Notes: generated by a model not told the origin, from the letters alone. Positions 8,073-63,913 are shown, counted from the stretch's first letter. The stretch: 64,000 nucleotides of DNA from Planctomycetia bacterium (GCA_016191115.1 JACPPG010000038.1:32907-96906); one strand, 5' to 3'. Program-made: numbers and translations.

Positions 8073-8200
8073 CAGGGCCGTTCACCGATTCAAGCTTGCC
8101 GGCGGCGCACCGGCGGGAAAGTGGGACAGGCACCGAGACGCAACGTTGGTCTGAAAGGACTTGCGCTGTTTATGCTCGGAGCCAGTCCCATTTTCCCGCC
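8073..8200 (+). mobile_element. 157-bp CAGGGCC MITE, copy A (3'-truncated)
   Basis: Begins CAGGGCCGTTCACCGATTCAAGCTTGCCGG. Matches the other copies up to CCCATTTTCCCGCC, then diverges. Confidence 0.85.
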
Positions 8201-8321
8201 GGCGCGCCGCTGCGCAGCTCGTGCGCGGTTCTCCCGATGCCTCGATCGGGTTACACTGCGAGCGCGATTTCGAGGGCAATCTTCGGCCCGTCGCGAACGA
8301 AGTGCTTGTAAGAGGACGCGT

Positions 8322-9503
8322 ATGCAGCCGCGAGTCTTGGTGTTGTCGGCTTCCGTGGGCGCCGGCCACGTGCGCGCGGCGGAAGCGGTCGAGCTGGCGC
8401 TGCGGCGGATCGCGCCGGACGTCGCCGTCGAGAACCGCGACGTGCTCGATTTCACCAATGCGGTCTTTCGCCGCGTCTACAGCCAGGCCTACCTGGACCT
8501 GGTCAACTACTTTCCGCACTTCGTGGGGTATTTCTACGACTGGCTGGAAGGGGACGGAGAGCTGCGGAAGCGAAAGCGCGACCGTCTGCGGCAGGCCGTG
8601 CAGAAGCTGAACCTGCGCGCCTTCGAGCGGTTTCTCACCGACCAGCAGTGGAACCTGGTCATCAATACCCACTTCCTCTCGGCGGAGCTCATCGCCACGC
8701 TCCGCAACCGCGGCGAGCTCGGCCTGCCGCAGGTCACCGTCTGCACCGACTTCGACACCCATCGGCTGTGGATCAACCAGCCCTGCGAGAAGTATTTCTG
8801 CGCGACGGACGAGGGATCGCTGCACCTGCAGCACTACGGCGTGCCGGCCGGCGACGTGGTGGTGACCGGCATCCCGATTCACCCCGTCTTCGCCACGCCG
8901 TGCGACCGCGCCGCGTGCCTGGCCCAGCAGGGCCTGATCGGCGACCGGCCGGTCGTTTTGCAGTTGTGCGGCGGCTTCGGCGTCGGCCCGGTCGAGGCCG
9001 TCTATCGCGGCTTGCTCGACGTGGCGATGCCGATCGAGTTGGCCGTCGTCTGCGGTCGCAACCAGGAACTCAAGGACGCTTTGGAAGCCCTGCCGGTGCC
9101 CGACCGGCACCGCGTCAAGATCATCGGCCTCACGCGCCAGATCGACCAGTTGATGGGCTGCGCTGACCTGGTGGTGTCGAAGCCGGGCGGGCTGACAACG
9201 TCCGAGATCCTCGCCCGCGGCGTGCCGATGGTCGTCGTCAATCCGATTCCCGGCCAGGAGAGCCGCAACAGCGACTACCTGCTGGAAAACGGCGCGGCGG
9301 TGAAAGTCAATCACGCCTGCACGCTGTCGGCCAAAGTGAGCGAGCTATTGGCCGATTCCGCGCGGCTGGCGCGGCTGCGCGAAGCGGCCCGCCGGCTGGG
9401 CCACCCGCAAGCGGCTTTCGACGTGGCCCGCCTGAGCCTGAAAGTGATCGGCATTGACGTAGCGGTGCCGCAGCCGGCCGTGAGCAGCACGAACGGTGAT
9501 TGA
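8322..9503 (+). CDS. MGDG synthase family glycosyltransferase (GT28, UgtP-like diacylglycerol glycosyltransferase)
   Basis: MQPRVLVLSASVGAGHVRAAEAV N-terminus. C-terminal SKPGGLTTSEILARGVPMVVVNPIPGQE motif. ATG at 8322 inside the longer ORF 7680..9503. Confidence 0.85.
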   Translation: MQPRVLVLSASVGAGHVRAAEAVELALRRIAPDVAVENRDVLDFTNAVFRRVYSQAYLDLVNYFPHFVGYFYDWLEGDGELRKRKRDRLRQAVQKLNLRAFERFLTDQQWNLVINTHFLSAELIATLRNRGELGLPQVTVCTDFDTHRLWINQPCEKYFCATDEGSLHLQHYGVPAGDVVVTGIPIHPVFATPCDRAACLAQQGLIGDRPVVLQLCGGFGVGPVEAVYRGLLDVAMPIELAVVCGRNQELKDALEALPVPDRHRVKIIGLTRQIDQLMGCADLVVSKPGGLTTSEILARGVPMVVVNPIPGQESRNSDYLLENGAAVKVNHACTLSAKVSELLADSARLARLREAARRLGHPQAAFDVARLSLKVIGIDVAVPQPAVSSTNGD

Positions 9504-9544
9504 CGCCCGGCGGCACTTGGAGATGATGAGTCGCGAGCGCGGTC

Positions 9545-9621
9545 GGGAGGGCGAGGCTCCCGCCGGGCCGGCACCCCGTGGACGACTCTGGTGTGCGGCT
9601 CGGCGGGAGCCTCGCCCTCCC
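9545..9621. terminator. GC-rich 21-bp-stem hairpin (GGGAGGGCGAGGCTCCCGCCG family)
   Basis: gggagggcgaggctcccgccg (9545-9565) is perfectly complementary to cggcgggagcctcgccctccc (9601-9621). Lies between the glycosyltransferase and the MFS gene. Confidence 0.6.
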
Positions 9622-9689
9622 GATATGTCCGCGCTGTTGCAAGTCTCCTCGCTGTCCACTGACCATCGTCACCATCGTCCACTGACCAC

Positions 9690-10934
9690 TTGCTCCCCGT
9701 GAATCGCCCGGTCCAACTCGCCGACTCGCCCGCCGCCGCGCCGCGCGCGCGCCCGCCGCTGCCCGCGAACGTCAAGCTCTTGGGAGTGACGAGTCTGGTG
9801 AACGACATCGCCAGCGAGATGCTCTATCCGCTCTTGCCGGCACTTCTAACCACGCTCTTAGGCACCGGCTACCGCCAGATTGGCCTGGCCGTGGGCATCA
9901 TTGAAGGCGCGGCCGAGGCCGTCTCCAGTGTCTTGAAGCTGTTCGCCGGCGGATGGTCGGACCGCACCGGACGACGCAAGGGTTGGATCGTCGTCGGCTA
10001 CGCCGCGTCGGCCGTGGCCAAGCCGCTGATGGGACTAATTGTCTATCCCTGGCAACTGCTGGCCTGCCGCGTCGGCGATCGGCTGGGAAAGGGGCTGCGC
10101 ACCTCCGCCCGCGACGCCGTGATTGCCGAGTCGACGCCGCCGGCCATCCGCGGCTGGGCCTTTGGCTTCCACCGCGGCATGGATCACATCGGCGCGGCGA
10201 TCGGTCCGCTGCTGGCCACCGGCTTCCTGTACTTGTGGCCCGACCGGTTGCAGACCTTGTTCCTGCTCTCGGCGATTCCGGGCACCGCGGTCATCGCGAT
10301 CCTGGCATTCGGGCTGCGCGAGCCACCGCACAGCGTTTCGGCCGCCGAGCCCTTCGCATTGTCGCTCGCGCCCTTTGAGCGCAACTTCCGGCTGTACTTG
10401 CTGTCGCTCGCCGTGTTCACGCTGGGCAATTCGAGCGACCTGTTTTTGCTCGCGCGCTCCGGCGAGCTGGGCGTCCCGGAGATGATGCTGCCCGTGATGT
10501 GGTTCGCTTTCCACGTCGCCAAGAGCACAGGCAACATGCTAGTGGGGCGCGTTGTCGAACGCGTCGGCGCGCGGCGGCTGATCTTCGCCGGCTGGTTGGC
10601 CTACGCGGTAGTCTATCTGGGCTTTGCCTTGGCCGACCGCGCGTGGCACGCCTGGGCGCTATTTCTCTCGTATGCGATCTTCTATTCGCTGACTGAGCCG
10701 CCGGAGAAGACGATTGTCGCGCAACTGGTGCCCGGCAACCGTCGAGGGCTGGCGTACGGCTGGTACAACTTCGCGATCGGCGTCGCGGCCCTTCCGGCCA
10801 GCCTGCTCTTTGGATTTCTGTACAAAGACTACGGCGCGCTCGCGGCGTTCAGCACCGGCGCCGGACTGGCAGTCGTGGCGGCCGTGCTGTTGACCGCGGT
10901 AAGGACAGAGCCGCGTAGCGGCGAAATCGCGTAG
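9690..10934 (+). CDS. MFS transporter
   Basis: 414 aa, about 12 hydrophobic segments, DRTGRRKG-type loop after TM2. TTG start at 9690 (GTG 9699 is an alternative). Confidence 0.8.
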   Translation: MLPVNRPVQLADSPAAAPRARPPLPANVKLLGVTSLVNDIASEMLYPLLPALLTTLLGTGYRQIGLAVGIIEGAAEAVSSVLKLFAGGWSDRTGRRKGWIVVGYAASAVAKPLMGLIVYPWQLLACRVGDRLGKGLRTSARDAVIAESTPPAIRGWAFGFHRGMDHIGAAIGPLLATGFLYLWPDRLQTLFLLSAIPGTAVIAILAFGLREPPHSVSAAEPFALSLAPFERNFRLYLLSLAVFTLGNSSDLFLLARSGELGVPEMMLPVMWFAFHVAKSTGNMLVGRVVERVGARRLIFAGWLAYAVVYLGFALADRAWHAWALFLSYAIFYSLTEPPEKTIVAQLVPGNRRGLAYGWYNFAIGVAALPASLLFGFLYKDYGALAAFSTGAGLAVVAAVLLTAVRTEPRSGEIA

Positions 10935-10954
10935 CCGTGGGTGTAAACCCACGG
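10935..10954 (+). terminator. short stem-loop directly after MFS stop
   Basis: ccgtgggt-gtaa-acccacgg, an 8-bp stem with a 4-nt loop and no U tract. Confidence 0.4.
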
Positions 10955-11109
10955 TCGGCGGCAAGAATCCATATCCTCAAGCCCCGCGAGGGGCGACATC
11001 GAATCCCGCTCTCGTGGTCCAATCGATCGTCTTAGCGACAGCCGAAACCTCGCTTCTTCGTGTTCTTCGTGCCGTCGTGGTTCGATCCTGATTTGATTCG
11101 GTTTGCGGA

Positions 11110-11529
11110 CTACGCACCGTCCCGCACGATCTCAAATGCCGCGGCGAGCTCGGGCGGGATCCGCGCCAAAGCCCGCGTGCCGAAATTCACGAACGCCCAT
11201 TCGGTCGAGGCGGTCGCCAGCACAGCGTCGTCCGCGCGGCGGATCATCTTGTAGCGCCGCAGGCAGGACAGTCGCTTGAAGTCGGCCACCCACGTGCGCA
11301 CCACCACCTCGTCTCCCTCGTAGGCGCTCGCCAGGTACTTGATCTCGTGGGCCCGCACCACGAAGCCGGCGCCGATCCGCTGGTACTCCTCGGCCGGCCA
11401 CCCCTGAGCGGCCGAATGCGCAAGCGCCGCCGCCAGCGCCCAGCGCAAGTACTCCAGGTTATTCACGTGCCCCAACCGATCGATGGCCTGCCGTGTGACA
11501 ATCAGATGATGTTCGTAGATGGCAGGCAT
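11110..11529 (-). CDS. acyl-CoA thioesterase, hotdog fold (YbgC/4HBT-like)
   Basis: 139 aa. IDRLGHVNNLEYLRW ... VRAHEIKYLASAYEGDEVVVRTWV is a typical 4HBT pattern. Confidence 0.85.
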   Translation of the reverse strand: MPAIYEHHLIVTRQAIDRLGHVNNLEYLRWALAAALAHSAAQGWPAEEYQRIGAGFVVRAHEIKYLASAYEGDEVVVRTWVADFKRLSCLRRYKMIRRADDAVLATASTEWAFVNFGTRALARIPPELAAAFEIVRDGA

Positions 11530-11725
11530 GCGGGGAGCAGTGATCAGTAATCAGTGGTCAGAGGCTGGAGATCGGAGGCTGGAGGCTTGAGGAAGAACGC
11601 TGGCACGGTCCTGTCCCGCCTTTCCTTCAGCCTGAAGTCTGAATCCTCCGCAGTGGCGATTGTTGAATATTTGCCCATTTGAACGGTTCTCATCGCTCGA
11701 CTCCAGCGTGCACGATGAAAGAGTA

Positions 11726-11820
11726 GGTTTGTCCGTCCTGGGAAGGGAACCGCCAAGGCGCCAAGGACGCCAAGAGGGGGCCTCGATCGCGTAGAATGGT
11801 TAGCTATGAGCGAAGCGTCT
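11726..11820 (+). repeat. copy 1 of a 95-bp direct duplication (promoter-like TAGAAT + ATGAGCGAAGCGTCT)
   Basis: Near-identical to 11973..12068 (2 substitutions + 1 indel by eye). TAGAAT at 11792-11797, ATG at 11806. The following ORF stops after 29 codons. Confidence 0.85.
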
Positions 11821-11948
11821 CGTCGTATTCCACGCGAACGACATCGCATACATTCTTTACTGCGCAATGTGGGGATTTCGGTGACGTGCTCATGATGATC
11901 GAAGCAGTAACCCCCATTCGGCGCCGCCGACTCCAATTCGGTTCGCTT

Positions 11949-12023
11949 TCTTGGCGATCTTGGCGCCTTGGCGGTTTGTCCGTCCTGGGAAAGGGAACCG
12001 CCAAGGCGCCAAGGACGCCAAGA
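11949..12023. repeat. CCAAGGCGCCAAGG word palindrome
   Basis: tcttggcgatcttggcgccttggcgg pairs with ccgccaaggcgccaaggacgccaaga. Same family as 53973..54045. Confidence 0.8.
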
Positions 12024-12068
12024 GGGGGTCTCGATCGCGTAGAATGGTTAGCTATGAGCGAAGCGTCT
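11973..12068 (+). repeat. copy 2 of the 95-bp direct duplication
   Basis: See 11726..11820. TAGAAT at 12040-12045. The ATG at 12054 opens the 81-aa ORF. Confidence 0.85.
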
Positions 12069-12299
12069 AAGCACCGGTGGTTTCAGTTTGGGCTGCGAAG
12101 CCTGCTTCTCGCGATGACCGCATGGGCGTTGGTCGCGGCGGCTATGCCTGGGGCGTTGAAAGCCTATCGCGAATGGCGGGAAGGACCTGTTGGCGCTCCC
12201 GGTAGGATCGCGCCATTCCCTAATAATATCTCATGTTCCTTCGACGTCATTGAGGACAATGCCGAACCGATGGCAATAGAGTCCGTCGCCACCGAATAA
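12054..12299 (+). CDS. small membrane-anchored hypothetical protein (RWFQFGL N-terminal motif)
   Basis: MSEASKHRWFQFGLRSLLLAMTAWALVAAAM..., a basic patch + WFQFGL + one hydrophobic helix. The motif is shared with 52585..53031 and with the window-edge ORF. Confidence 0.5.
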   Translation: MSEASKHRWFQFGLRSLLLAMTAWALVAAAMPGALKAYREWREGPVGAPGRIAPFPNNISCSFDVIEDNAEPMAIESVATE

Positions 12300-14482: not shown

Positions 14483-14484
14483 GG

Positions 14485-15920: not shown

Positions 15921-16033
15921 CTAATATCGAAATTCAAATGTCTAATCTAATGAAGGACGAATGACCGAATGACGAAACGTTTCGGATTTCGTGCTTCGGA
16001 TTTCTTTAGACATTTGGATTTAGACATTAGACT
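15921..16033. repeat. AT-rich word palindrome (same family as 1861..2005) between two co-directional genes
   Basis: aaatgtctaa / ttagacattt arms with a cgaaacgtttcg centre. Followed at 16037-16064 by the CTCCGTG word run. Confidence 0.8.
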
Positions 16034-16075
16034 TTCCTCTCCGTGTCTCCGTGCCTCCGTGGTGAAGCATTTACC

Positions 16076-18408: not shown

Positions 18409-18556
18409 CAGGGCCCCGTTCACAGATTCAAGCTTGCCGGCGGCGCACCGGCGGGAAAGTGGGACAGGCACCGAGACGCAACGTTGGTCTGAAAGGACTT
18501 GCGCTGTTTATGCTCGCAGCCAGTCCCATTTTCCCGCCTCGCCATTTTGAAAAACA
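18409..18556 (+). mobile_element. 157-bp CAGGGCC MITE, copy B (right terminal repeat lost)
   Basis: CAGGGCCCCGTTCACAGATTCAAGC ... CGCCATTTTGAAAAACA. Ends 24 nt before the ATG at 18581. Abuts a GGCGGGCAAGATGCCCGCCCCCCC hairpin on its left. Confidence 0.85.
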
Positions 18557-18580
18557 CGCACCCCGGTCGCTTGCTTCCCC

Positions 18581-19882
18581 ATGGCCACCGGCGATTCACC
18601 TCAGCCTTACGTTCTGGTCGTCTGCCCGACGTGCAGGACCCGCCTGCACCCGCGCCGCGAGTTATTGGGCAAGCGCGTCCGTTGCCCGGACTGCGGCGTG
18701 CCGGTCCGCGTCGTCGAGCGCACGCCGCAATCGGTCGCCGCGGTGCGCGAGAAGGAATCGCCGGGCGAATACCGGCTTTCGGAGACCGATCAGCCCGTCG
18801 TGCCGATCGAGACGGTGGCGGTGACGTGCCCCACCTGTGGCACGAAGCTGCATCCGCGCGTCGCATTGGTCGGCAAGCGCGTTCGATGCCCAGACTGCCG
18901 TCGGCCGGTAACGGTTCCCGAGCCGCGTGAGGAGAAGCCGATCAAAGCGCCACCACGGCCGGCGGGGGCGTACGGCATCGGCGCCGCGCCCGAGCCGATC
19001 GCCATGCCGGAGACGGTTTTGCAGGATCTGGACAGGACCATCACCGCGCCGCCGCCCGAGCCGGCGCCGCGGTTGTGGTTCGTGACCGGCGTGTTCGGTT
19101 TTCCCTGGTATCCCGGCACGATTTCACGGTGGATGATTCTGACGTTGTTCCTCTTGTTCGCCAACACGATCGTGGTCTTCGGCGGAAAGGCGATTATGGG
19201 CATGGTCGCCGGCGCCGGCGCCGGCGACGCCTACGCCACCGCCTTCAAGGTCGCCCTGTCGGTGGCCCTGGGGATGATCGTCTGGACGCTGACGATGGCG
19301 TACATCGCGGGCTGCGTGGTGACGGTCATTCGCGACACGGCGGCGGGCAACAACGACATTGAGGATTGGAGCGACACCGAGATAACCGAGGGGTTCCTCC
19401 GCAGCATATACCTGTGGTTTCCACTCGTGGCGGCCGGCGCCGTGTGCTACGGCATCCACTACGTGACGGCCATGTTCGCGCCCGAGTGGGCCGTGGCGGT
19501 TTCCTCGGTGGCGCTGCTCGTGCTGTTTCCCATCTTTTTCGTGTCGGCCCTGGAGCATGGTTCGGCCCTGGTGCTCGTAAGCCCGACAGCGCTGCGGCTC
19601 ATTTCCGGTTTCTGGTGGGGCTGGCTGTTGCTTTACGTCGAGGTGGGGCTGGTGACCGGCGGCTGGGCAGGGCTGTCGTGGCTGGGATTGGACCGGCTGC
19701 CGTACGTCACCGCCCTTTTGGGTGCTCCGGTGCTGGCCGCCGTGATCTTTATCGACGCCCGGCTGCTGGGCCGCTTCCTGCTGCGCGCCGCGGAAGTCGT
19801 CGAAGAGCGCCGGGCGCTGCGGGAAGAGCAAGAGAACGTGGATGCGGAGGAAGAGCATCGAGCGCGAAACGGCGGCGCGTGA
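18581..19882 (+). CDS. hypothetical polytopic membrane protein with two tandem zinc-ribbon modules
   Basis: The module CPTC-x-T-x-LHPR-x5-GKRVRCPDC-x2-PV occurs twice (residues ~15-45 and ~83-112). At least 6 hydrophobic helices and an acidic/basic C-terminal tail follow. Confidence 0.7.
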   Translation: MATGDSPQPYVLVVCPTCRTRLHPRRELLGKRVRCPDCGVPVRVVERTPQSVAAVREKESPGEYRLSETDQPVVPIETVAVTCPTCGTKLHPRVALVGKRVRCPDCRRPVTVPEPREEKPIKAPPRPAGAYGIGAAPEPIAMPETVLQDLDRTITAPPPEPAPRLWFVTGVFGFPWYPGTISRWMILTLFLLFANTIVVFGGKAIMGMVAGAGAGDAYATAFKVALSVALGMIVWTLTMAYIAGCVVTVIRDTAAGNNDIEDWSDTEITEGFLRSIYLWFPLVAAGAVCYGIHYVTAMFAPEWAVAVSSVALLVLFPIFFVSALEHGSALVLVSPTALRLISGFWWGWLLLYVEVGLVTGGWAGLSWLGLDRLPYVTALLGAPVLAAVIFIDARLLGRFLLRAAEVVEERRALREEQENVDAEEEHRARNGGA

Positions 19883-19981
19883 CGAGCGCGCCGCGCGCGG
19901 CGGAAATCCCAGGGGTGGCCACCCCTGGGCTTCGCAAGCGATTTCAAGTCTCCTGCCAGCCGCCCGCTGCCGCCTCCTGCC

Positions 19982-21134: not shown

Positions 21135-21273
21135 CAGGGCCATTCTGTTTTTCAAAATGGCGAGGCGGGAAAATGGGACTGGCTCCGAGCATAAACAGCG
21201 CAAGTCCTTTCAGACCAACGTTGCGTCTCGGTGCCTGTCCCACTTTCCCGCCGGTGCGCCGCCGGCAAGCTTG
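21135..21273 (-). mobile_element. 157-bp CAGGGCC MITE, copy C (truncated at the GTTCACAG end)
   Basis: The plus strand reads CAGGGCCATTCTGTTTTTCAAAATGGCGAGG ... GCCGGCAAGCTTG, then diverges. Confidence 0.85.
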
Positions 21274-23040: not shown

Positions 23041-23955
23041 TTGCAGATCCACGGGACGGAGATCGTCGACACGTTCGCGGAAGCGTTTCGCATGCGCTAC
23101 GCGCGACTCGTCGTGACGGCATACGACGAGCACTGGTTGGCGGCAGCGGTTGCCGCGTTCACCGGCTACGCGAGCAGCGTGATCGCCTGCGACGCCGAAG
23201 CCGCGGTCGAGCGACGGCTTGCCGGCCACGAGACGCCCGACGGTCGCGAGGGCGCGGCGATCCTGGTCTTTGCGCCGACCGCCGACGCGCTCGCCGCGGC
23301 CGTGCCCAATCGCACTGGCCAGTGCCTGATGACTTGCCCGACGACGGCCGTGTTCGACGGGCTCGCGGAGGGAGATGAGCGGATCCCCCTGGGGAAGCAC
23401 ATCCGTTTTTTCGGAGACGGCTTCCAGAAGAGCAAGCTGCTCCTGGGTCGCCGCTACTGGCGCGTCCCGGTCATGGACGGCGAGTTTTTGGTCGAGGAGT
23501 CGCTGGGCGTCGCCAAGGGCGTGGCCGGCGGGAACTTGATCGTTCAAGGCGAAAGCCTTGAGGTCGCGCTGGCCGCCTCGCGCCGCGCCGCGGAGTCGCT
23601 AGCCGAGCTTCCGGGCGTCATCACCCCCTTTCCCGGCGGCATCGCGCGAAGCGGCAGCAAAGTCGGCTCGCGGTACAAGAAGCTGCGGGCCTCGACGGCT
23701 GACGGATTCTGCCCGACCTTGCGCGGAAGGGTCGAGACCCGATTGCACGCGGGGGCCAATTGCGCCTACGAGCTGGTGATCGACGGCGTCGACGAGTCGA
23801 GTGTGGCCCGGGCGATGGCCGTCGCCGCGCGGGCCGCGGCCTCACCCGGGATCGTCGCCATCAGCGCCGGCAATTACGGAGGCAAACTCGGCAAGTTCCA
23901 CTTCCGCCTGCACGAGGTGCTGGCCGCCGAAGAGAACTCACCACGAAGCCACTGA
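23041..23955 (+). CDS. ftr: formylmethanofuran--tetrahydromethanopterin N-formyltransferase (Ftr/FhcD family)
   Basis: TTG start. MQIHGTEIVDTFAEAFRMRYARLVVTA closely resembles the canonical Ftr N-terminus. About 300 aa, as expected. Confidence 0.85.
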   Translation: MQIHGTEIVDTFAEAFRMRYARLVVTAYDEHWLAAAVAAFTGYASSVIACDAEAAVERRLAGHETPDGREGAAILVFAPTADALAAAVPNRTGQCLMTCPTTAVFDGLAEGDERIPLGKHIRFFGDGFQKSKLLLGRRYWRVPVMDGEFLVEESLGVAKGVAGGNLIVQGESLEVALAASRRAAESLAELPGVITPFPGGIARSGSKVGSRYKKLRASTADGFCPTLRGRVETRLHAGANCAYELVIDGVDESSVARAMAVAARAAASPGIVAISAGNYGGKLGKFHFRLHEVLAAEENSPRSH

Positions 23956-23959
23956 GGAG

Positions 23960-24096
23960 CGAAGAACGTCGAATGTCCAAATAAGAATGTCTAAAGAAAT
24001 CTGAAGGACGAAGCTCGCAAGGGCATCTCGTCATTCGTGCTTCGTTATTCTTTAGATTACACAGATTAGACATTAGTCCTTCGACATTCGTCATTC
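23960..24096. repeat. AT-rich word palindrome between convergent ftr and rarA
   Basis: cgtcgaatgtcc ... ccttcgacattcgtcattc with tgtctaaagaaatc words. The right arm contains the rarA stop codon (24091-24093). Confidence 0.8.
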
Positions 24097-27313: not shown

Positions 27314-27434
27314 GGGCGGCGGTTCCAAGACGCGGTTGAGGGTAGAATCCGTGCGGCGCCGCGCGACGAAGTGGAGGGCGCCTCAAGGCCGACATGGATT
27401 ATACCGCGGCAGACGTCACGCTTTGCGCCGCCGG

Positions 27435-27578
27435 CGGGCCGTTCACAGATTCAAGCTTGCCGGCGGCGCACCGGCGGGAAAGTGGGACAGGCACCGAGAC
27501 GCAGCGTTGGTATGAAAGGGCTTGCGCTGTTTGTGCTCGGAGCCAGTCCCATTTTCCCGCCTCGCCATTTTGAAAAAA
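27435..27578 (+). mobile_element. 157-bp CAGGGCC MITE, copy D (both termini degenerate)
   Basis: CGGGCCGTTCACAGATTCAAGCTTGCC ... CGCCATTTTGAAAAAAG. Shares the GCAGCG/GGTATG/TTTGTG variants with copy G. Confidence 0.85.
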
Positions 27579-27628
27579 GTGACCGACGGCGCCGCCCGAT
27601 TTGCCCCCTTCGAGAAGAGGTGCTCGCG

Positions 27629-29156: not shown

Positions 29157-29341
29157 GAATGACGAATGTCGAAGCTCGAATGTCAAAGAAGCACGAAATC
29201 CGAAGCGCGAAACTTCCTGTGATCAAGTATCTCAGATTTGGAATCCAGGTCCCAGAATCTCGGACCTGAGGATTCCGCACGATTTCGGATTTCGGGCTTT
29301 CGGTCATTCTTTTGACATTCGAGCTTCGACATTCGTCATTC
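29157..29341. repeat. AT-rich word palindrome (185 bp) between convergent genes
   Basis: gaatgacgaatgtcgaagctcgaatgtcaaa pairs perfectly (~31 bp) with tttgacattcgagcttcgacattcgtcattc. Inner cgaaatccgaa / ttcggatttcg pair. The right arm contains the stop codon at 29336. Confidence 0.9.
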
Positions 29342-43066: not shown

Positions 43067-43236
43067 CTCGCTGCCAAGCATCGCACTTTTGTGTTCCGAG
43101 AGCGCCACCGTGCTCCTTGCACTCCGCGTCCTCGGCGTGCTCGGTGGCTAACTCCGTCGAAATGTGTCCCTCGCTGGCGCGACTGGCGCGTCGGGCTGGT
43201 GTTCGCGCGGCACGACAACGCTCCGCGTTTGCGGTG

Positions 43237-43393
43237 CAGGGCCGTTCACAGATTCAAGCTGGACGGCGGCGCAGCGGCGGGAAAGTGGGACAGGCACCGA
43301 GACGCAACGTTGGTCTGAAAGGGCTTGCGCTGTTTATGCTCGGAGCCAGTCCCATTTTCCCGCCTCGCCATTTTGAAAAACAGAATGGCCCTG
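43237..43393 (+). mobile_element. 157-bp CAGGGCC MITE, copy E (intact)
   Basis: CAGGGCCGTTC ... GAATGGCCCTG. Flanked by a perfect direct repeat GTTTGCGGTG at 43227-43236 and 43394-43403. Confidence 0.92.
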
Positions 43394-43600
43394 GTTTGCG
43401 GTGGGAACGCGGCAGGGATACGCTGTGGGCTATCACTCGACAGCGCGGGCACGATTTCGTGGCCGAGCAGATGCTGGCGAAGTTCAAGTGAGGGCGGCTC
43501 CGCCGGCGAACGAGGTCAACCGCCCCTCACCCGGCCCTCTCCCGCGAGGGGAGAGGGAGCTGTTGTTGGACGTGCTGAAATCAACGCAGCGGGATGGACC

Positions 43601-48504: not shown

Positions 48505-48683
48505 GGTTTAGGCGGGAGACTTGAGGGTGGAGGAACACGATGGCTGCCGCGTCGGGCGGGTGCGGGTGGCGGACAGTCCCTGCCCGGTGGAATTCGAGCA
48601 TCATACCGCAATTCTTCCGCTTTAGTACCGCGGTCCGTTCACAGCCAACGACACAACAAAGCGCCAACGTCGACGCCGTCGAG

Positions 48684-48840
48684 CGGGGCCATTCTGTTTT
48701 TCAAAATGGCGAGGCGGGAAAAGGGGACTGGCTCCGAGCATAAACAGCGCAAGTCCTTTCAGACGAACGTTGCGTCTCGGTGCCTGTCCCACTTTCCCGC
48801 CGCTGCGCCGCCGGCCAGCTTGAATCTGTGAACGGCCCTG
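48684..48840 (-). mobile_element. 157-bp CAGGGCC MITE, copy F (intact)
   Basis: The plus strand reads CGGGGCCATTCTG ... GTGAACGGCCCTG. Flanked by a perfect direct repeat CGCCGTCGAG at 48674-48683 and 48841-48850. 5 mismatches to copy E by manual alignment. Confidence 0.92.
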
Positions 48841-49007
48841 CGCCGTCGAGCGGGATGCGGGTATCGCCCTGAGTTAGGAGCTATAATTGGCCTGCTGGCG
48901 AGGCCGATCATGGTGCGCCAGAGCGGTTCCGCCGTCACGGAACACCGGGCGCTCAACTGACGTTGAGGCGGCACGTCAGAGCGTTCACCGCGTAGGAACT
49001 CCACCAC

Positions 49008-52584: not shown

Positions 52585-53031
52585 CTAGTCGTTTGGCGGA
52601 TCAGGGCCATTCACCGATTCAAGCTTGCCGGCGGCGCACCGGCGGGAAAGTGGGACAGGCACCAAGACGCAGCGTTGGTATGAAAGGGCTTGCGCTGTTT
52701 GTGCTTGGAGCCAGTCCCATTTTCCCGCCTCGCCATTTTGAAAAACAGAATGGCCCTGGTTTGGCGGATCTAGGTAGTCGTCCAGCCTGGTCCTTTGCTT
52801 CTGGATCCGCTGGAGCATCTCGTGCGGGTGCTGAGCGTAATAGAGGCTCCGCGGCTTCTCGACATTCTCCTGGCTTGCGGCCAGTTGAGCCTCCAGCCGC
52901 TTTCGTTCGCGACGCTTCTTCGTCGCCAGCGTCAACGCCGCCGCCACTGCCACTAGCAACAACAACGTTCCCAGGCCGAATTGGAACCAGCGACGGCGCG
53001 GCGCCTGCTTGCCGATCTCATCTTCGGCCAT
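52585..53031 (-). CDS. small RWFQFGL-motif membrane protein whose 3' end reads through a MITE insertion
   Basis: MAEDEIGKQAPRRRWFQFGLGTLLLLVAVAA. Residues ~88-143 are encoded by MITE copy G plus one target duplication. The ORF ends at the original stop. Confidence 0.45.
   Translation of the reverse strand: MAEDEIGKQAPRRRWFQFGLGTLLLLVAVAAALTLATKKRRERKRLEAQLAASQENVEKPRSLYYAQHPHEMLQRIQKQRTRLDDYLDPPNQGHSVFQNGEAGKWDWLQAQTAQALSYQRCVLVPVPLSRRCAAGKLESVNGPDPPND
52602..52758 (+). mobile_element. 157-bp CAGGGCC MITE, copy G (intact, inside an ORF)
   Basis: CAGGGCCATTC ... GAATGGCCCTG. Flanked by a direct repeat GTTTGGCGGAT at 52591-52601 and 52759-52769. 10 mismatches to copy E. Confidence 0.92.
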
Positions 53032-53868: not shown

Positions 53869-53972
53869 GCGATCCTCCTGCGCTTGCGATCAATCAAGAC
53901 GGTGAACCACCAAGACACGGCGGGCACGAAGAAGGGACCTGCCGACAGAAACGTGCAACTTTCCTTTATCCC

Positions 53973-54045
53973 CTTGGCGTTCTTGGCGCCTTGGCGGTTC
54001 CTCTTTGCAGGCGGAATGAACCGCCATGTCGCCAAGAACGCCAAG
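53973..54045. repeat. CCAAGGCGCCAAG word palindrome in the fabI / sigma-54-activator divergent spacer
   Basis: cttggcgttcttggcgccttggcggtt pairs with aaccgccatgtcgccaagaacgccaag (27-bp stem, 3 central mismatches). Confidence 0.8.
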
Positions 54046-54152
54046 AGGAAACGGAGGAGCACGCAACATAACGACTTGCGTCGGATCGCTCAACGTCCTT
54101 CGGCGGGACGAGTTGGGACCCGCCCAGTGGCGCGTATCTGATTCGCCTGATT

Positions 54153-56201: not shown

Positions 56202-56963
56202 TCAGTTCCAGCCCACCAACTCGCTGTGGCGACGTAGCAGTGCAGGGTCTGGTTGCCAGCGATCGGGCAACCGAATGCGCAATCCATCAAACTCAATCAA
56301 TCCGTGCTCTACGGCCTTGTTCGATCGCAGGCTCTTCAGGTCGACGTGAACCTGCACCTCAAACGCGTCGTTGACGATGAGAAGTCCCATGTCGAATGCC
56401 CTGTCGTGCAGGACGCAAAGACAGATACCATTTCGAGGATTCATCCGCTGTTCCCTGTCGACGGACCATGGAACGATATGCGACGCAACGAGCAACCCAC
56501 GAATGGGCATTGTGCAGATGGAGCACGCGTAGTCGTACCCCGCCAATACGATCGATCGAAACAGGCATTGGTTGACTCGTACCTTGACGATCGTCTCTCG
56601 ATCGAGGCCCTGGACGTCCTCCCACAACACGGCTTCCGAAAGCTCGGGCTCAGCACCACACAATCGGGCGGCCGCGGTTTCACACTCGAAGCCGATGCTC
56701 TCGGGATCCGCCGCGAATTGCTCGCAAATCGCGCGATCCTCCTGCGACGCCTTCGATAGTCCGCGGACGCCGCGCGCCTTTAGGGCGGGATCAAATGCCG
56801 CGAGGTTGCAACACTTCATGGCAACTGCACCGGCCGTCCTATTCAGCGCCTTGGCAACCTTGATAATGTCGGGGTTGCGAGCGTGGAGCCGTCCGAACGG
56901 CGTTCGGCAATAAAGGTTAAACGCGACCAGAGTTTCATCTCGCGTCCACGATCGGCGGGCCAT
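56202..56963 (-). CDS. HNH endonuclease (HNH_2 / putative restriction endonuclease type)
   Basis: YDYACSICTMPIRGLLVASHIVPW ... NGICLCVLHDRAFDMGLL. Alternative starts at 56996/57005. The locus is ~55% GC by hand count, against a mid-60s% background. Confidence 0.8.
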   Translation of the reverse strand: MARRSWTRDETLVAFNLYCRTPFGRLHARNPDIIKVAKALNRTAGAVAMKCCNLAAFDPALKARGVRGLSKASQEDRAICEQFAADPESIGFECETAAARLCGAEPELSEAVLWEDVQGLDRETIVKVRVNQCLFRSIVLAGYDYACSICTMPIRGLLVASHIVPWSVDREQRMNPRNGICLCVLHDRAFDMGLLIVNDAFEVQVHVDLKSLRSNKAVEHGLIEFDGLRIRLPDRWQPDPALLRRHSELVGWN

Positions 56964-57202
56964 CACATCGTCCTCCGAGGCTCCCTTGCCGCTCATCCGG
57001 CACATTTTTATTGCTTTGCGGCAGCCGAAGCGGTATACCATAGGCACGCATCGGCAGTTGTTGATGGATTGCCGCGGCGAGCGAACGGCTTTGTAGGAGG
57101 TGTCTCCCGACGCCGACCGGGGCTTGGCCGAGCGCGGCAAAGCCGAGCCACGCGACGGCGGGCAGGATGCCCGCCCCCCAACGACGCCCAAGGAGCGAAA
57201 CG

Positions 57203-58564
57203 ATGAACACCGCACGCGGTTGCCGGGGGCTGTCGGGGCGGGCGATTGGGCGGCGGGCCTTTTTGGAAACGACCGTGGCGGCCGGCGGGGCCGGGTTGAC
57301 GCTGCCGATGCTCCTCCAATCGCGCGCCGCGGCGCGCGAGTCCGGACAGGCGGCCCGCGAACCCGGTCAAACCGTGCGCGACACGGCGGTGATCCAGATT
57401 TGGCTCGGCGGCGGGCCGACGCATTTCGAAACCTACGACCCCAAGCCGCAAGCGCCAGCCGAATATCGCGGCCCGTTCGGCGCCATCTCCACGTGCCTTC
57501 CCGGCGTGCAAATCTGCGAGACGCTGCCGCGGCACGCGCAGATCCTCGACAAGGTCGCCATCCTGCGAAGCGTCTACCACAATAGCGCCGACCACGACGC
57601 CGGCATGTACTTCTGCACTACCGGCAAGAAGACGAAGTTCCAGCCCTCGACCGGTTCGTACACGGCGCGGATCCGCGGCGCGAACCAGCCCGGGCTGCCG
57701 GCCTACGTGCACCTGGGCTTTCAGCCGACGACGAACCTGGTGTTCGTGCCGAACTTCAAGGCGGAGTATCTGGGCGGCGGCTACGATCCGTTCTACATCA
57801 CCGACGATCCGGCCGAGGCCAGCTTCCAGGTGCCCAACCTGCGGTTGGCCGACGGCGTGACGATCGACCGGCTGGGGGACCGCCGGTCGCTGCTTGGGCA
57901 CTTCGATCGCTTGCGCCGGCAGGCGGATCGCAGCGGGGCGATGGGCTCGATGGACCAGTTCGGCCGCGCGGCCTTCGACATGGTCACCGGCGCCGCCGCG
58001 CGGGAGGCCTTTGACCTGTCGCGCGAAGACCCGAAGACCCGCGAGCGATACGGCATGCACCGCTGGGGGCAGAGCTGCCTGTTGGCCCGGCGGCTGGTCG
58101 AGTCGGGCGTGACGTTCGTCACCGTGAATTTCGACCCGCACTCGTTCTCGTTCGACATGCACGCCAACGTCGAGCGGGGGATGCGCAGCGCCGGGCCGCG
58201 GATGGATTCGGCGATTCCGGCCCTGGTCGAGGACCTGCACGAGCGGGGCCTGGCCGACCGGGTGATGGTGATCGCCTGGGGCGAGTTCGGCCGCACGCCC
58301 CGCGTCAACCCCGCGGGCGGCCGCGACCACTGGGGCGAGGTGATGAGCGTGCTGGTGGCGGGCGGGGGCCTGCGCGTCGGCCAGGTGATTGGCTCGTCCA
58401 CGCCGAAGGGCGAGGTGCCCAAGGACCGGCCGATCATCCCCTACGACGTGCTGGCCACGATGTACCGGCACCTGGGGATCGACCCGTATACGACGTTCAC
58501 GGACCACGCCGGCCGGCCGACGCCCTTGCTGAACGAGGGGACGGTGATCGGCGAGTTGGTGTGA
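57203..58564 (+). CDS. DUF1501 domain-containing protein (Tat signal)
   Basis: AGGAG 8 nt upstream of ATG 57203. GRRAFLETTVAAGGAGL twin-arginine leader. GGRDHWGEVMSVLVAGGG. Confidence 0.9.
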   Translation: MNTARGCRGLSGRAIGRRAFLETTVAAGGAGLTLPMLLQSRAAARESGQAAREPGQTVRDTAVIQIWLGGGPTHFETYDPKPQAPAEYRGPFGAISTCLPGVQICETLPRHAQILDKVAILRSVYHNSADHDAGMYFCTTGKKTKFQPSTGSYTARIRGANQPGLPAYVHLGFQPTTNLVFVPNFKAEYLGGGYDPFYITDDPAEASFQVPNLRLADGVTIDRLGDRRSLLGHFDRLRRQADRSGAMGSMDQFGRAAFDMVTGAAAREAFDLSREDPKTRERYGMHRWGQSCLLARRLVESGVTFVTVNFDPHSFSFDMHANVERGMRSAGPRMDSAIPALVEDLHERGLADRVMVIAWGEFGRTPRVNPAGGRDHWGEVMSVLVAGGGLRVGQVIGSSTPKGEVPKDRPIIPYDVLATMYRHLGIDPYTTFTDHAGRPTPLLNEGTVIGELV

Positions 58565-58569
58565 CGTAC

Positions 58570-58700
58570 AATGACGAATGTCGAAATTTGAGTGTCTAAA
58601 GAAATCCGAATGACGAAAAGCTGAATGTCCGAAAGGAACGCGATCATTCGTCCTTCGGGCATTCGGCTTTCGTCATTCTTTCGACATTCGTGCTTCGTCC
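58570..58700. repeat. AT-rich word palindrome between convergent genes
   Basis: aatgacgaatgtcgaaa ... tttcgacattcgtgctt, with tgtctaaagaaatccgaatgacg words. The CTCCGTG word run follows at 58755-58782. Confidence 0.8.
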
Positions 58701-59603: not shown

Positions 59604-59843
59604 GGTAACAGGTGCCCTGCGATTTTTCGGGCGCTTCGGCGGCACGGCGAAAAAATCCGTCGCGCTGGTTTCATTCACCATTCCCAGTGATAAGATAGCC
59701 GCGTATCGGCGGGGAGTCCAACGGGCGCGCCCAAGACGCGCGAGTTCGCGAGCACTGCGATGTCAGTGTCGCGCCTCGTTGATAATAGCGACGCCGGCCG
59801 GCGAGTCACGTCGGGGACCGGCGGAGCAAGGAATGAGCCACTG

Positions 59844-61694
59844 ATGGCGATTATCACGACGACGGCGCGATCGCTTGACGATTGGGACGATCGCGACGAG
59901 GAATCCCTCGCCTTTCGGCCCGTCTGGCACCGGTCCGCGCCGCGGACGATCGCCCGCGCCGAACGTTTCGGCGAAGGGAGCGCGGGTTGGGCGGCCTGGG
60001 CCGCGCACCTTGCCCAGCGCGGCGAGCCGCGGCCGCTCGTCGCATTGCTGCCGTCGGCGCGTCCGTCGCTTGCCTGGGGCATGACGTCGCGATTGCAGAT
60101 CGCCGTTGCCCCGCTGCCGACGCGCCTTCCCTCGACCCGCGAGTTGATCGATCGCCTCGATCGCATCGAGCGCAACCTGGCCTTCAATGCCGCGCCCGAA
60201 GTCGACGATCTCGCGGCCGCCTGGCTGGCCGAGGCGGCGCACCGCCGTTGCTGTCATTTTGGTTTGGAGTGCCTGGCCTGGTGCCGCGCGCTACCCGCGC
60301 TGGCGGCGCGGTTGCGCCCGCTCTGGTGGTGGCGGCTGTTCGAGACGCTGCTGGTGACCGCCGAGGATGCCGAGGCCGGCCGCGAGAGCGACGCACTGGC
60401 ACGGCAATGGCTCACGTGCGAGTTGCCCTTGTCGCTGGCGTACCTGTTCCCGGAGATCACTCCCGCGCGACAACTGGCGCGGCGGGCCACGGGCGGTTTG
60501 CTCGCCGACCCGCGAGCCGGGATCGCCGAAGACGGCATGCCGGCCGCCAGGCTCATCGGCGCCGTGCGGCCCCTTTGGGCCACGTTCCTCCGCGCCCGGA
60601 CGATCGCGGACCAACTGAAAAAGTCGTGCTGGAGCGAGGAAGTCGACGCCCGCTATCGGGCTTTCGTGCGGCAGGCGCTACGGCTATCGCGGCGCGACGG
60701 CACGATGGTTTTGTCCTCCGCACCGGCCGTGGAGAACGACGCGGACCTGCTCCAACTGGCGCTGGCTGACGCGTCGGAGGCCGATCGGGCGTTGGCGCGG
60801 GCCGTTGTGCCCACCTTGCGCGGCCGGAAACGCGACGACGTTTCGTTGCCTGCCGCGGTCCACAATGAACAGGCGGGCGTTGCCATTCTGCGCTCGCGCT
60901 GGTCGCGCAACAGCGAGCGTTTGACCGTGGCCCATTCCGGCACGGACGTGCGGACTGAGCTGGCGTGCGGCCGCGACGTGCTGTGGTCGGGCCGCTGGAC
61001 GCTCGATGTTCGCGCCGATGGCGAGCCGCTTGTGCCCCCGGCCGACGCCCGATGGGAGGAAGTCTGCTGGATCTCGGATGAGGACGTCGACTATCTCGAG
61101 CTGGAGTTGACGGTGGCCGAAGGGGTGCGCGTCGAACGGCAGATGTTGTTATCGCGCTCGGACCGCTTCCTCTACCTGGCTGATGCGATCCTGGGAACAC
61201 ATCGCGTGGCGATCGAGTACCACGGCGCGCTGCCGCTTGTGGACGAGGTCGCCTTCGACGCTTCGACCGAAACGCAAGAAGGGTATCTGGTGGGCGACAA
61301 GCCGCGGGCGCTTGTCTTTCCGCTGGCTCTGGCGGAGTGGCGTGCCCAATCGCGCGGCGGCGCGCTTGCGGCAAACGACGACGGCCTGGAGCTGCGCCTG
61401 ACGCACGGCGCGGCGCGGCGCATCTATGCCCCGCTGTTCATCGATCTCGATCCTGCGCGACTGTTCCGCCCGGCGAGCTGGCGGCAATTGACGGTGGCCG
61501 AATCGCGCGAGGTGGTGGCGGCCGACGTGGCCGTCGGCTATCGCGTCACGGCGGGGGACGAACAATGGCTCGTCTACCGCTCGCTTGGCCCGCGGGGAAA
61601 TCGCACGCTCCTGGGTCAGAACCTGGTCTCCGAGTTCCTCATCGGGCGCTTCAATCGCAACGGTGAAGTCGAGCCGCTGGTGGAAATCGAGTGA
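59844..61694 (+). CDS. hypothetical protein (616 aa; weak resemblance to heparinase II/III-type C-terminal domain)
   Basis: Long ORF with ATG 59844. The AGVAILRSRWS ... LYLADAILG layout is reminiscent of that fold, but no catalytic His motif is seen. Confidence 0.6.
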   Translation: MAIITTTARSLDDWDDRDEESLAFRPVWHRSAPRTIARAERFGEGSAGWAAWAAHLAQRGEPRPLVALLPSARPSLAWGMTSRLQIAVAPLPTRLPSTRELIDRLDRIERNLAFNAAPEVDDLAAAWLAEAAHRRCCHFGLECLAWCRALPALAARLRPLWWWRLFETLLVTAEDAEAGRESDALARQWLTCELPLSLAYLFPEITPARQLARRATGGLLADPRAGIAEDGMPAARLIGAVRPLWATFLRARTIADQLKKSCWSEEVDARYRAFVRQALRLSRRDGTMVLSSAPAVENDADLLQLALADASEADRALARAVVPTLRGRKRDDVSLPAAVHNEQAGVAILRSRWSRNSERLTVAHSGTDVRTELACGRDVLWSGRWTLDVRADGEPLVPPADARWEEVCWISDEDVDYLELELTVAEGVRVERQMLLSRSDRFLYLADAILGTHRVAIEYHGALPLVDEVAFDASTETQEGYLVGDKPRALVFPLALAEWRAQSRGGALAANDDGLELRLTHGAARRIYAPLFIDLDPARLFRPASWRQLTVAESREVVAADVAVGYRVTAGDEQWLVYRSLGPRGNRTLLGQNLVSEFLIGRFNRNGEVEPLVEIE

Positions 61695-61781
61695 AGGGCG
61701 GCAGAGCGACGAGCGACTAGCAATTGGCCGGAGCTGGCGCCCGCTTCTCGTCTACGTTCCGGCTAATCGCTAGTTGCTCCC

Positions 61782-62492
61782 ATGCCCGACGTCGCCCGCC
61801 GCGTCTCCCGCAACCTTGACATCGTCCGCGCCCGCATCGCGGCGGCCGCCGCGCGCGTCGGGCGGTCGGCCGAGCCGATCACTTTGGTGGCGGTCACCAA
61901 GTACGCCCCTCCGGCGGCGATCCGGGCCGTGGTCGATGCGGGCTGCCGCGACCTGGGCGAAAGCCGGCCGCAGCAGCTTTGGCAGCGTGCCACCGAGTTC
62001 GCGCACGGCGCGGTCCATTGGCACCTGATCGGTCATTTGCAGCGAAATAAAGTGGCGCGGACATTGCCTTTGGTGTCGCTTGTGCATTCCTGCGACAGCC
62101 TCCGCCTGGCCCAGGCGATCGACACGGCGGCGGCCGAGCAACACGGCCCGCCCGTGCCTGTGCTACTGGAAGTGAATGTCTCGCATGATCCAGCCAAGCA
62201 CGGCCTCGCGCCGGATGAGCTGGCGGGGCTCTTGCCGGCGCTCGCGGGCCTCGGGCACGTCAAAGTCCGCGGCCTGATGGCGATGGCGGGCCGGGCGGAC
62301 GATCCGGCGGCCGCGCGGGCGGACTTCCGCGGTCTGCGCGAGCTCCGCGATCGACTGCGCCAAGCCTGCCCGCCCGCAATCGTGCTGGACGAGTTGTCGA
62401 TGGGCATGAGCGGCGACTTCGACGTGGCGATCGAGGAGGGCGCGACGATCGTCCGCGTCGGCTCGGCGCTCTTCGAGGGAACCAGCGAATAA
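61782..62492 (+). CDS. yggS: YggS family pyridoxal-phosphate-dependent protein
   Basis: LVAVTKYAP (Lys), HWHLIGHLQRNKV, SMGMSGDF. Confidence 0.9.
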   Translation: MPDVARRVSRNLDIVRARIAAAAARVGRSAEPITLVAVTKYAPPAAIRAVVDAGCRDLGESRPQQLWQRATEFAHGAVHWHLIGHLQRNKVARTLPLVSLVHSCDSLRLAQAIDTAAAEQHGPPVPVLLEVNVSHDPAKHGLAPDELAGLLPALAGLGHVKVRGLMAMAGRADDPAAARADFRGLRELRDRLRQACPPAIVLDELSMGMSGDFDVAIEEGATIVRVGSALFEGTSE

Positions 62493-62599
62493 TGGATCAC
62501 TTGTTCTCCCATCCGTGGACGAATGCGGAAGATTTCCCTCTCCCCGCGCGGGAGAAGGGGTCGGGGTGAGGGGGCTCATATCGAGAGGAACGACGATCC

Positions 62600-62914
62600 A
62601 TGGTTGACGTCCGCGCGCACCCCGCCGGCGCGATTCTGACCGTGCGGGCCCAGCCCGGTGCCCGGCGGGTGGGCGTTCGCGGCGAGCACAACGGGATGCT
62701 CAAGGTGAGCGTCACGGCCGCTGCCGAGAAGGGAAAGGCGAACGCGGCAGTTCAACGCGCGCTTGCGGCGGCTCTTGACGTGGCAGCATCCGACGTCGAA
62801 CTCGTCGCCGGCGCGACGTCGCGGCAAAAGCAATTCCTAGTCCGTGGCCTGGCCGTTCAGCAGCTAAGGGCGCGCATCGCCGCGGCGATGAAGAGAGCCC
62901 CCGCAGGCGATTGA
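62600..62914 (+). CDS. DUF167 (YggU) family protein
   Basis: LTVRAQPGARR ... LKVSVTAAAEKGKANAAV. Follows yggS, as in many bacteria. Confidence 0.85.
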   Translation: MVDVRAHPAGAILTVRAQPGARRVGVRGEHNGMLKVSVTAAAEKGKANAAVQRALAAALDVAASDVELVAGATSRQKQFLVRGLAVQQLRARIAAAMKRAPAGD

Positions 62915-62940
62915 TCGGGGGGCGGGCGTCTTGCCGGACG

Positions 62941-63423
62941 TCACTCCTCGTCCCGCCGAATCTCCAGGATCTCGAACTTCATCATGCCCTTGGGCACCTG
63001 AATCTCGACCTTGTGCCCGACCTTGTGGCCGATCAGGCCCTGGGCCAGAGGGCTGGTAATCTGGATCTTGCCGTTGTCGTAGTCCTCATCGCCGGCGCCC
63101 ACCAGCGTGAATTCCTCCGTGTCGCCGAAGTCGAGGTCCTTCACCACCACCGTCACGCCGAACACCACCTCATCCTTCGGCAGGGTCGACGGGTCGACGA
63201 TCCGCGAGCGGGCCAGCTTGTCGCGCAGCAGATTGATCTTCGCCTGCAGCATGGCCTGCAACTCCCGCGCGCCGTGGTACTCGGCATTTTCGCTCAGGTC
63301 CCCCTCGCTGCGGGCGCTGGCGATTTGCTGGGCGATCTTCGGCATCTCGACCGATTCCATGTTCGCCAACTCGGCCTTCAGCTTGTCGTAGCCGGAGCGG
63401 CTCATGGGGATGACGTCGGACAT
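62941..63423 (-). CDS. greA: transcription elongation factor GreA
   Basis: [12 protein letters not shown] ... [15 protein letters not shown] ... [20 protein letters not shown]. Confidence 0.92.
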
Positions 63424-63539
63424 GGCTCACTTCTCCACAGGCGAAAAAAAGCGGCCCCCGAAATGCCTGGAGGCCGCGTCCGATGGACCTATTCTGGCCA
63501 AGGAGAAGTGGGCTTGTAAAGTGCAGTTAGGGCATGCAC

Positions 63540-63693
63540 CAGGGTCATTCTGCTTTTCAAAATGGCGAGGCGGGAAAATGGGACTGGCTCCGAGCAACAG
63601 CGCAAGTCCTTTGAGACCAACGTCGCGTCTCGGTGCCTGTCCCACTTTCCCGCCGGTGCGCCGCCGGCAAGCTTAAATCTGTGAACGGCCCTG
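63540..63693 (-). mobile_element. 157-bp CAGGGCC MITE, copy H (154 bp, intact ends)
   Basis: CAGGGTCATTCTGC ... GTGAACGGCCCTG. Flanking repeat AGGGCATGCAC (63529-63539) / AGGGCGTGCAC (63694-63704). 3-bp internal deletion. Confidence 0.88.
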
Positions 63694-63744
63694 AGGGCGT
63701 GCACAGGCCGCCGCAGCCTTGCAATGTGGCAGGTGAGAAGAGGG

Positions 63745-63913
63745 GGGGGCCCGCTCCACGGGCAGGCACGAGCCCGACGCACCAGCAAGGGGCGGGAAAG
63801 TGGGACCAGCAGTGAGACGCGACGTTTGGTCTCAAAGGACTTGCGCTCTTGGCGCTCGGAGCCAGTCCCCCTCTTGCCGCCTCCTCCCTTTTTGAAAAGC
63901 AGAAACGGCCCTG
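63745..63913 (+). mobile_element. divergent relative of the CAGGGCC MITE, copy I
   Basis: Shares GGCGGGAAAGTGGGAC, GACTTGCGCT, CTCGGAGCCAGTCCC and the end AGAAACGGCCCTG. The left boundary is approximate and no flanking duplication was recognised. Confidence 0.6.

Follow-up and report, generated by a model that had tools for sequence, protein, structure and literature searches.

A 64,000-nt stretch of the genome of an uncultured Planctomycetia bacterium (GCA_016191115.1, JACPPG010000038.1:32907-96906), available as a metagenome-assembled genome (MAG) and referred to here as the window, contains nine copies of a ~157-nt repeat. This repeat is very probably a miniature inverted-repeat transposable element (MITE), that is, a 157-bp non-coding, non-autonomous DNA transposon residing in the Planctomycetia chromosome. 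Coding open reading frames (ORFs) were selected by their GC content at third codon positions (GC3) and annotated with Pfam. The genes of the window are ordinary chromosomal ones, including a PrkA/DUF444/SpoVR operon and genes for glycogen metabolism, FabI, GreA, and a sigma-54 activator. Hallmarks of Planctomycetes are also present, namely PSCyt1/PSCyt2/PSD1, two DUF1501 proteins, and a formylmethanofuran-H4MPT formyltransferase (FTR).

Search of the window by blastn with the copy at 43237-43393 yielded eight close copies and one divergent copy of the repeat, and repeat finding gave the same set. The list drawn up in an earlier, sequence-only reading, which ran from 8073 to 63745, was thereby recovered, with the copy placed at 27435 now starting at 27436 and the divergent one alignable from ~63752. 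The close copies, aligned together with their flanks by MAFFT, are 95-100% identical to the 157-nt consensus. Orientation is mixed (+ and -) and spacing is irregular, mostly 2-16 kb, with the closest pair 0.2 kb apart. Three copies are intact and exactly 157 nt long, as had been claimed: 43237..43393 on the plus strand, 48684..48840 on the minus strand, placed between the divergent Ldh_2 and amine-oxidase genes, and 52602..52758 on the plus strand, which bears a compensated stem variant, CAAG/CTTG. They differ pairwise at 5, 10, and 13 positions, so that the 5-10 differences previously counted hold for two of the pairs and are exceeded by the third. A further copy with both ends (63540..63693, minus strand), located 117 nt upstream of greA, measures 154 nt owing to a 3-nt internal deletion.

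The ends of the element, CAGGGCC(G/A)TTC and GAATG(G/A)CCC(T/C)G, constitute terminal inverted repeats (TIRs) of the form CAGGGCCRTTC / GAAYGGCCCTG, and both termini were confirmed from the three intact copies. In each of these, 9-11 of the 11 nt match when the 3' end is reverse-complemented; pairing resumes at nt 17-21, giving ~17 matches of 22 if the comparison is extended. Target-site duplications (TSDs) were found at every copy possessing both ends, exactly where they had been reported. The direct repeats are GTTTGCGGTG (43227-43236 / 43394-43403), CGCCGTCGAG as read on the plus strand (48674-48683 / 48841-48850), GTTTGGCGGAT (52591-52601 / 52759-52769), and, at the 154-nt copy, the 11-bp AGGGC[A/G]TGCAC (63529-63539 / 63694-63704). 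All four are thus locus-specific, with lengths of 10, 10, 11, and 11 bp; three are exact and one contains a single mismatch. Given a per-base match probability of 0.273 in the window, p is ~2e-6 for one exact 10-mer pair at given positions, hence three exact pairs and one near-exact pair lie far beyond chance. Two of the four duplications, GTTTGCGGTG at 43227-43236 and GTTTGGCGGAT at 52591-52601, are nearly alike, although the DNA beyond them is unrelated; judged from these sequences, the likeness may reflect a target-site preference.

The remaining copies are incomplete. The copy at 8073..8200 (+) has an intact 5' end and comprises element nt 1-128, stopping after the hairpin described below, with no TSD. 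Element nt 1-146 are present at 18409..18556 (+); 2 nt are inserted in the 5' TIR, and both a 3' TIR and a TSD are missing. The minus-strand copy at 21135..21273 retains nt 19-157, the first 18 nt being gone while the 3' end is intact, and it also has no TSD. Both tips are degenerate in the copy at 27436..27577 (+; nt 3-144), which has a possible decayed TSD, only the 8-nt GCGCCGCC being found on either side (27425-27432 / 27589-27596). The divergent copy at 63752..63913 (+) appears to be an older member of the family; its blastn match is 81% over 63788-63913, it ends in ...AAACGGCCCTG, it is not flanked by a TSD, and it lies head-to-head with the 63540 copy. Breakpoints of the partial copies tend to coincide with junctions or with the palindrome's tip.

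All nine copies are situated between ORFs scored as genes, and genes separate all but the last two. For every one of the eight close copies, one or more predicted gene starts are found at a distance of 15-284 nt, and six of these copies are located within divergent promoter regions. An orientation bias relative to downstream genes was considered and rejected, since at these six loci orientation is uninformative and the remaining two loci disagree, the 43237 copy being co-oriented with its downstream gene and the 52602 copy antisense to it. The coding capacity of the element is nil: most frames carry stops, or else only a chance frame of ~43-52 codons, and an ORF spanning two of the copies gave no Pfam match. 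The claimed absence of a transposase from the window also holds, no transposase domain having been detected in Pfam scans of 50 window ORFs, which included every long ORF backed by the GC3 screen. One ORF (56202-57215, minus strand) contains an HNH_2 endonuclease domain (E = 1e-11) and failed the GC3 coding screen; this gene may be foreign or in decay.

Imperfectly palindromic over its full length, the element folds into a single long hairpin. Its predicted RNA fold reaches -87.4 kcal/mol (z = -8.1) for the plus strand and -74.7 kcal/mol (z = -6.0) for the minus strand, a gap that is due to G-U pairs. In the core, a short sub-hairpin caps a stem of ~27 bp, GGCGGGAAAGTGGGACAGGCACCGAG ... CTCGGAGCCAGTCCCATTTTCCCGCC. 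Among the nine copies and one outside sequence that were compared for covariation, a single compensated pair occurs within the window, a change from G-C to A-U in the 52602 copy, and most pairs are invariant. No copy reaches the gathering threshold of any Rfam 15 family; at E-value thresholds only generic hairpin matches appeared, such as mir-8521 with 34 bits against the 80 needed. Consensus scans revealed neither a sigma-70-like promoter nor an intrinsic terminator in or beside the copies.

Copies of the element occur elsewhere in the genome as well. Further copies were sought with a protein query made by joining the six consensus reading frames, an insensitive approach that nevertheless revealed at least four more copies, in which the C-termini of 'Planctomycetia bacterium' MAG proteins run into the element. 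These proteins, MBI2824881.1 (tagged HYX69_09360), MBI2825507.1, MBI2826212.1, and MBI2826638.1, are encoded on four separate contigs, apparently of a single MAG in view of their closely spaced accession numbers. The set includes an acyltransferase-like protein, a DUF1501 protein, an ABC permease, and a Ser/Thr kinase. At the protein level all four of these copies are partial, starting at ~nt 17-19, ending at ~nt 137, or covering only the half between the hairpin apex and the 5' tip. The DUF1501 protein, MBI2825507.1, is devoid of its normal C-terminus, and the Ser/Thr kinase, MBI2826638.1, is interrupted within the activation loop; each continues into MITE-derived residues and, as read from the sequences, is probably a pseudogene resulting from an insertion or deletion where a copy of the element lies.

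The distribution of the element among relatives was assessed at a locus it flanks in the window on both sides, an amine oxidase-TPR gene pair. The nearest homologues of the amine oxidase share 74% amino acid identity with it. Two relatives' loci of 21.4 kb each (42.9 kb in total), one from ERZ25039551 contig_207, belonging to a 7.8-Mb genome, and one from a JGI contig, both retain the gene pair. Neither the element nor its core occurs anywhere in these 42.9 kb, which come from the two closest relatives and take in the intergenic DNA surrounding the pair; this absence indicates that the element is specific to its lineage and does not represent a structure conserved in synteny. In a sister FabI contig (89% nucleotide identity), synteny is lost 68 nt past the gene, before the site of the element is reached. 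A blastn search of 72,556 plasmids with the whole element gave no match, nor did scans of viral contigs, among them one with the 5' TIR pattern. Two genome contigs (L002 and L003) that contain an exact 18-mer of the 5' TIR were discarded as chance matches, having nothing beyond the 18-mer itself in common with the element, among the matches listed.

The stem of the core has a counterpart outside this organism. A 22-mer from the stem matched a sole metagenome contig (L004, Ga0265303_10172563), which looks lower in GC. At positions 273-368 (-) of this contig, both 26-27-nt arms are nearly identical to those of the MITE core, including the CAAG/CTTG variant of the 52602 copy, while the hairpin has an unrelated 43-nt loop, unrelated flanks, and no CAGGGCC tips. 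It could belong to a related family of MITEs with sub-terminal sequence in common, or be a palindrome that has its own function; a single instance is not enough to choose between them. The hairpin is found ~60 nt upstream of a small ORF with a signal-peptide-like N-terminus. The idea of a nested arrangement, with an inner MITE inside an outer one, was rejected, as no duplication flanks the core in the window and only a doubtful 10-nt repeat was observed in the metagenome contig.

The features of the repeat are those of MITEs (class definition: PMC3733652): it is small and non-coding, it is bounded by short TIRs, its TSDs are constant in length and locus-specific at four of four two-ended copies, and it is dispersed on both strands, with nine copies in the window and at least four elsewhere. 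These properties, together with the disruption of genes and the absence from relatives, lead to its identification as a MITE. The TIR is shorter than the 15-30 bp quoted for the class (PMC3733652). The earlier proposal of a mobile non-autonomous element, and not a conserved RNA gene, is accordingly upheld by the inverted termini, by the 10-11 bp duplications at every copy with two ends, by the irregular spacing of copies on both strands, by the lack of an Rfam family, by copies elsewhere in the MAG that are joined to the 3' ends of unrelated genes or cut such genes short, and by the two relatives devoid of the element. A CRISPR array was likewise correctly set aside, the copies being 0.2-16 kb apart, in both orientations, and with genes between all but the last two.

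Mobility of the element would require a DDE transposase supplied in trans, which would bind the CAGGG tips. The target would then be cut with a 10-11 bp stagger, and repair of the cuts would create the duplications. To judge from the end sequence and the duplication length, the transposase could belong to the ISAs1 family, its gene being located elsewhere in the genome or lost by now. Copies deprived of one tip would be immobile. Breakpoints located at palindrome junctions or at the apex suggest deletions provoked by the palindrome, and some of them may be products of assembly.

A relationship with the ISAs1 family of insertion sequences (ISs) was proposed in the sequence-only reading, based on the CAGGG ends and the size of the duplications. 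ISfinder lists target duplications of 8-10 bp for this family. ISAs1 elements have been described as having 14-22 bp inverted repeats that start with CAGGG and a 10-bp direct repeat (PMC11946415), and ISArsp11 has the left inverted repeat CAGGGCTGATGCAAAGTCG and a 10-bp direct repeat (PMC6305408). Eleven annotated ISAs1 elements were inspected; they begin with CAGGGC or CAGGGA and have duplications of 8, 9, or 10 bp. Examples are the H-rpt/ISEc1 of E. coli K-12 (1291 bp), with ends CAGGGAAAGATC / CAGGGCAAGATT and no TSD found; a Salinivibrio element and ISAeme1, both with ends CAGGGC... and no TSD found; and elements of Pseudoalteromonas and Streptomyces, also ending in CAGGGC..., with TSDs of 10 and 9 bp, respectively. 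The element of the window has in common with this family the CAGGG(C) termini and the short imperfect inverted repeats, and its 10-11 bp duplications come close to theirs in length; to this extent the proposal agrees with the literature and with annotated elements. In contrast, ISAs1 elements are ~1.2-1.4 kb long and contain a transposase gene, whereas the element has only 157 bp and none; beyond CAGGGC the sampled ends are of the ...AAGATCNCGAAC type, compared with CGTTCAC... here; and the long palindrome in the interior of the element has no relation to any IS sampled. With the TIR unlike theirs past CAGGGC and no partner found, the link to ISAs1 is a tentative best guess, given somewhat less than an even chance, and not a demonstrated membership.

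Hairpin-forming MITEs with short duplications (TA or a few bp) are well known in other bacteria, such as Correia/NEMIS in Neisseria, ERIC/IRU and YPAL in enterobacteria, and RUP in S. pneumoniae. Like the element described here, they are 70-300 bp in size, TIR-bounded, and non-coding, they have many intergenic copies, and they can form a long hairpin when transcribed. They differ from it in showing no sequence similarity and in belonging to another host phylum, and its duplications reach 10-11 bp. For the element there is no sign of RNA processing, nor, from the consensus scans, of promoter or terminator activity. Text searches did not retrieve any description of a MITE family in Planctomycetes, and the family is new as far as could be found in the literature searched; the kind of element is well known.

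Several observations weigh against the identification as a MITE of ISAs1 type. No autonomous element with matching ends was found by Pfam in the window, in the plasmid and viral scans, or among the genome-contig matches listed. Past CAGGGC, the TIR is unlike the ends of all 11 ISAs1 elements inspected, which come from outside the Planctomycetes, and the 11-bp TSD is one above the 8-10 bp of the family. The intergenic DNA of the relatives at the oxidase-TPR locus, at 74% amino acid identity of the neighbouring protein, is not alignable with the window, and thus no empty site can be read there. Four of the eight close copies (8073, 18409, 21135, and 27436) have neither a full set of termini nor a clean duplication, and the first three of these are the copies nearest the consensus (99-100%), unlike the expectation for old, decayed relics. 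In addition, the junction 18556|18557 at the end of the 18409 copy is contradicted, exactly at the truncation point, by an independent contig presented below. Finally, the preservation of the 27-nt arms in the unrelated metagenome contig is not predicted by a model of a purely selfish MITE.

This last observation bears on the alternative that survives best, according to which the conserved unit is the ~90-nt core hairpin (GGCGGGAAAGTGGGACAGGCACC ... GGAGCCAGTCCCATTTTCCCGCC), endowed with a cellular function, and the 157-bp element is merely its vehicle or is kept at promoters by selection. The core could act as a structured RNA in 5' untranslated regions (5' UTRs) or as a palindromic protein-binding site. 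The hairpin is strong and its plus strand is favoured through G-U pairs, and the compensated change from G-C to A-U is seen both in the 52602 copy and in the metagenome contig; this is the only compensatory position, however, most pairs never vary, and no Rfam family matches. The arms are nearly identical in that contig despite another loop and other flanks, and copies that have lost a transposon tip retain a core with 99-100% of the consensus sequence, but this high identity may stem from the collapse of repeat interiors during short-read assembly. All eight close copies in the window adjoin gene starts; against this reading, six of them occupy divergent regions where orientation is uninformative, the two informative loci disagree, and no sigma-70-like promoter or intrinsic terminator accompanies them. 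Other copies of the MAG truncate coding sequences, and the orthologous regions of relatives do without the element. On balance it is unlikely that the arms GGCGGGAAAGTGGGACAGGCACC / GGAGCCAGTCCCATTTTCCCGCC constitute a separate functional module of Planctomycetes, which a CAGGG-ended MITE would have spread to the 5' regions of genes, a proposal derived from comparing these sequences.

A second alternative, considered very improbable, holds that short-read MAG assembly, through mis-joins and consensus collapse at the repeat, generated much of the pattern artificially, above all the truncated copies. Logan contigs of run SRR12113392 match the window at 100% identity. One of these (L001) stops 25 nt inside the 52602 copy and another (L006) stops 30 nt inside the 63540 copy, as expected where a k-mer graph meets a multi-copy repeat, and the 3' junctions of both copies are thereby confirmed independently. 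A third contig of the same run (L020) is 100% identical to window positions 18557-19937, and leftward of this segment it has 73 nt of non-MITE sequence instead of the element. It therefore departs from the window exactly where the 18409 copy ends, either as a population polymorphism or as a mis-join in one of the assemblies. The 73-nt head was also tried as a diverged copy of the element and rejected, its alignment score being no better than those of shuffled sequences. Truncated copies so near to the consensus are likewise suspicious, and they and their interiors should be treated with caution. On the other hand, four copies are each bracketed by a matching pair of 10-11 bp duplications, which no mis-join can generate; independent contigs bear out two intact 3' junctions, and the repeat is present on five contigs in all. 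Assembly artefacts can thus explain some truncated copies, not the element itself.

The weakest alternative, spread of a repetitive extragenic palindromic (REP) or REPIN-type palindrome by a REP-associated tyrosine transposase (RAYT), an IS200/IS605-like tyrosine/HUH enzyme, in place of a DDE-type MITE, is hardly credible and is largely refuted by the TSDs: the element resembles REP/REPIN sequences in being intergenic, palindromic, and multi-copy, yet it is 157 bp long with CAGGG-type TIRs and 10-11 bp duplications, it has no GTAG/CGTC tag at the stem ends, no Y1/HUH transposase was found in the window, and REPs have no DDE-type TIRs and are not known to have target duplications at their flanks. 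A REP is a stem-loop of 20-40 bp, marked at one end by GTAG or CGTC and linked to a RAYT; REP super-families have been reported in Planctomycetes (PMC3733652).

Other repeats and motifs are also present in the window, distinct from the MITE. A second palindromic family, AT-rich, occurs at 1852-2004, 15980-16039, 23952-24012, 29285-29337, and 58557-58699, with arms such as GACGAATGTCTAA..TGTCTAAAGAAATCCGAA / TTCGGATTTCTTTAGACA.. in its sequence. Each of its copies directly follows a stop codon, and three are located between convergent genes, a placement opposite to that of the MITE, which suggests terminator-like or REP-like elements. A third palindromic repeat, made of CTTGGCG heptamers (CTTGGCGNNCTTGGCGCCTTGGCGGTT ... 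AACCGCCAAGGCGCCAAGGACGCCAAG), was detected at 11702-12068, where 11740-11820 and 11988-12068 form a tandem duplication with 248-bp spacing and 98% identity, and at 53970-54048, just upstream of the sigma-54 activator gene. The Acido-Lenti-1 small RNA motif of Rfam was found at 10909-10954 (-), with 45.2 bits against a gathering threshold of 37; the family is named for Acidobacteria and Lentisphaerae and occurs here in a Planctomycete.

MITEs are common, and the identification of this family as a MITE is chiefly of use for annotation. The repeat accounts for the breaks that occur every few kilobases when this organism is assembled from short reads, as well as for the spurious C-terminal tails or the truncation of MBI2824881.1, MBI2825507.1, MBI2826212.1, and MBI2826638.1. 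If a partner of ISAs1 type were confirmed, the family would provide a clear case of an ISAs1-derived MITE. Of all the features, only the recurrence of the hairpin arms in another organism might point to something out of the ordinary. An influence of the element on neighbouring genes is conceivable, for instance through a hairpin in 5' UTRs. Copies recur about every 7 kb, beside gene starts, and the expression of many genes could thereby be affected.

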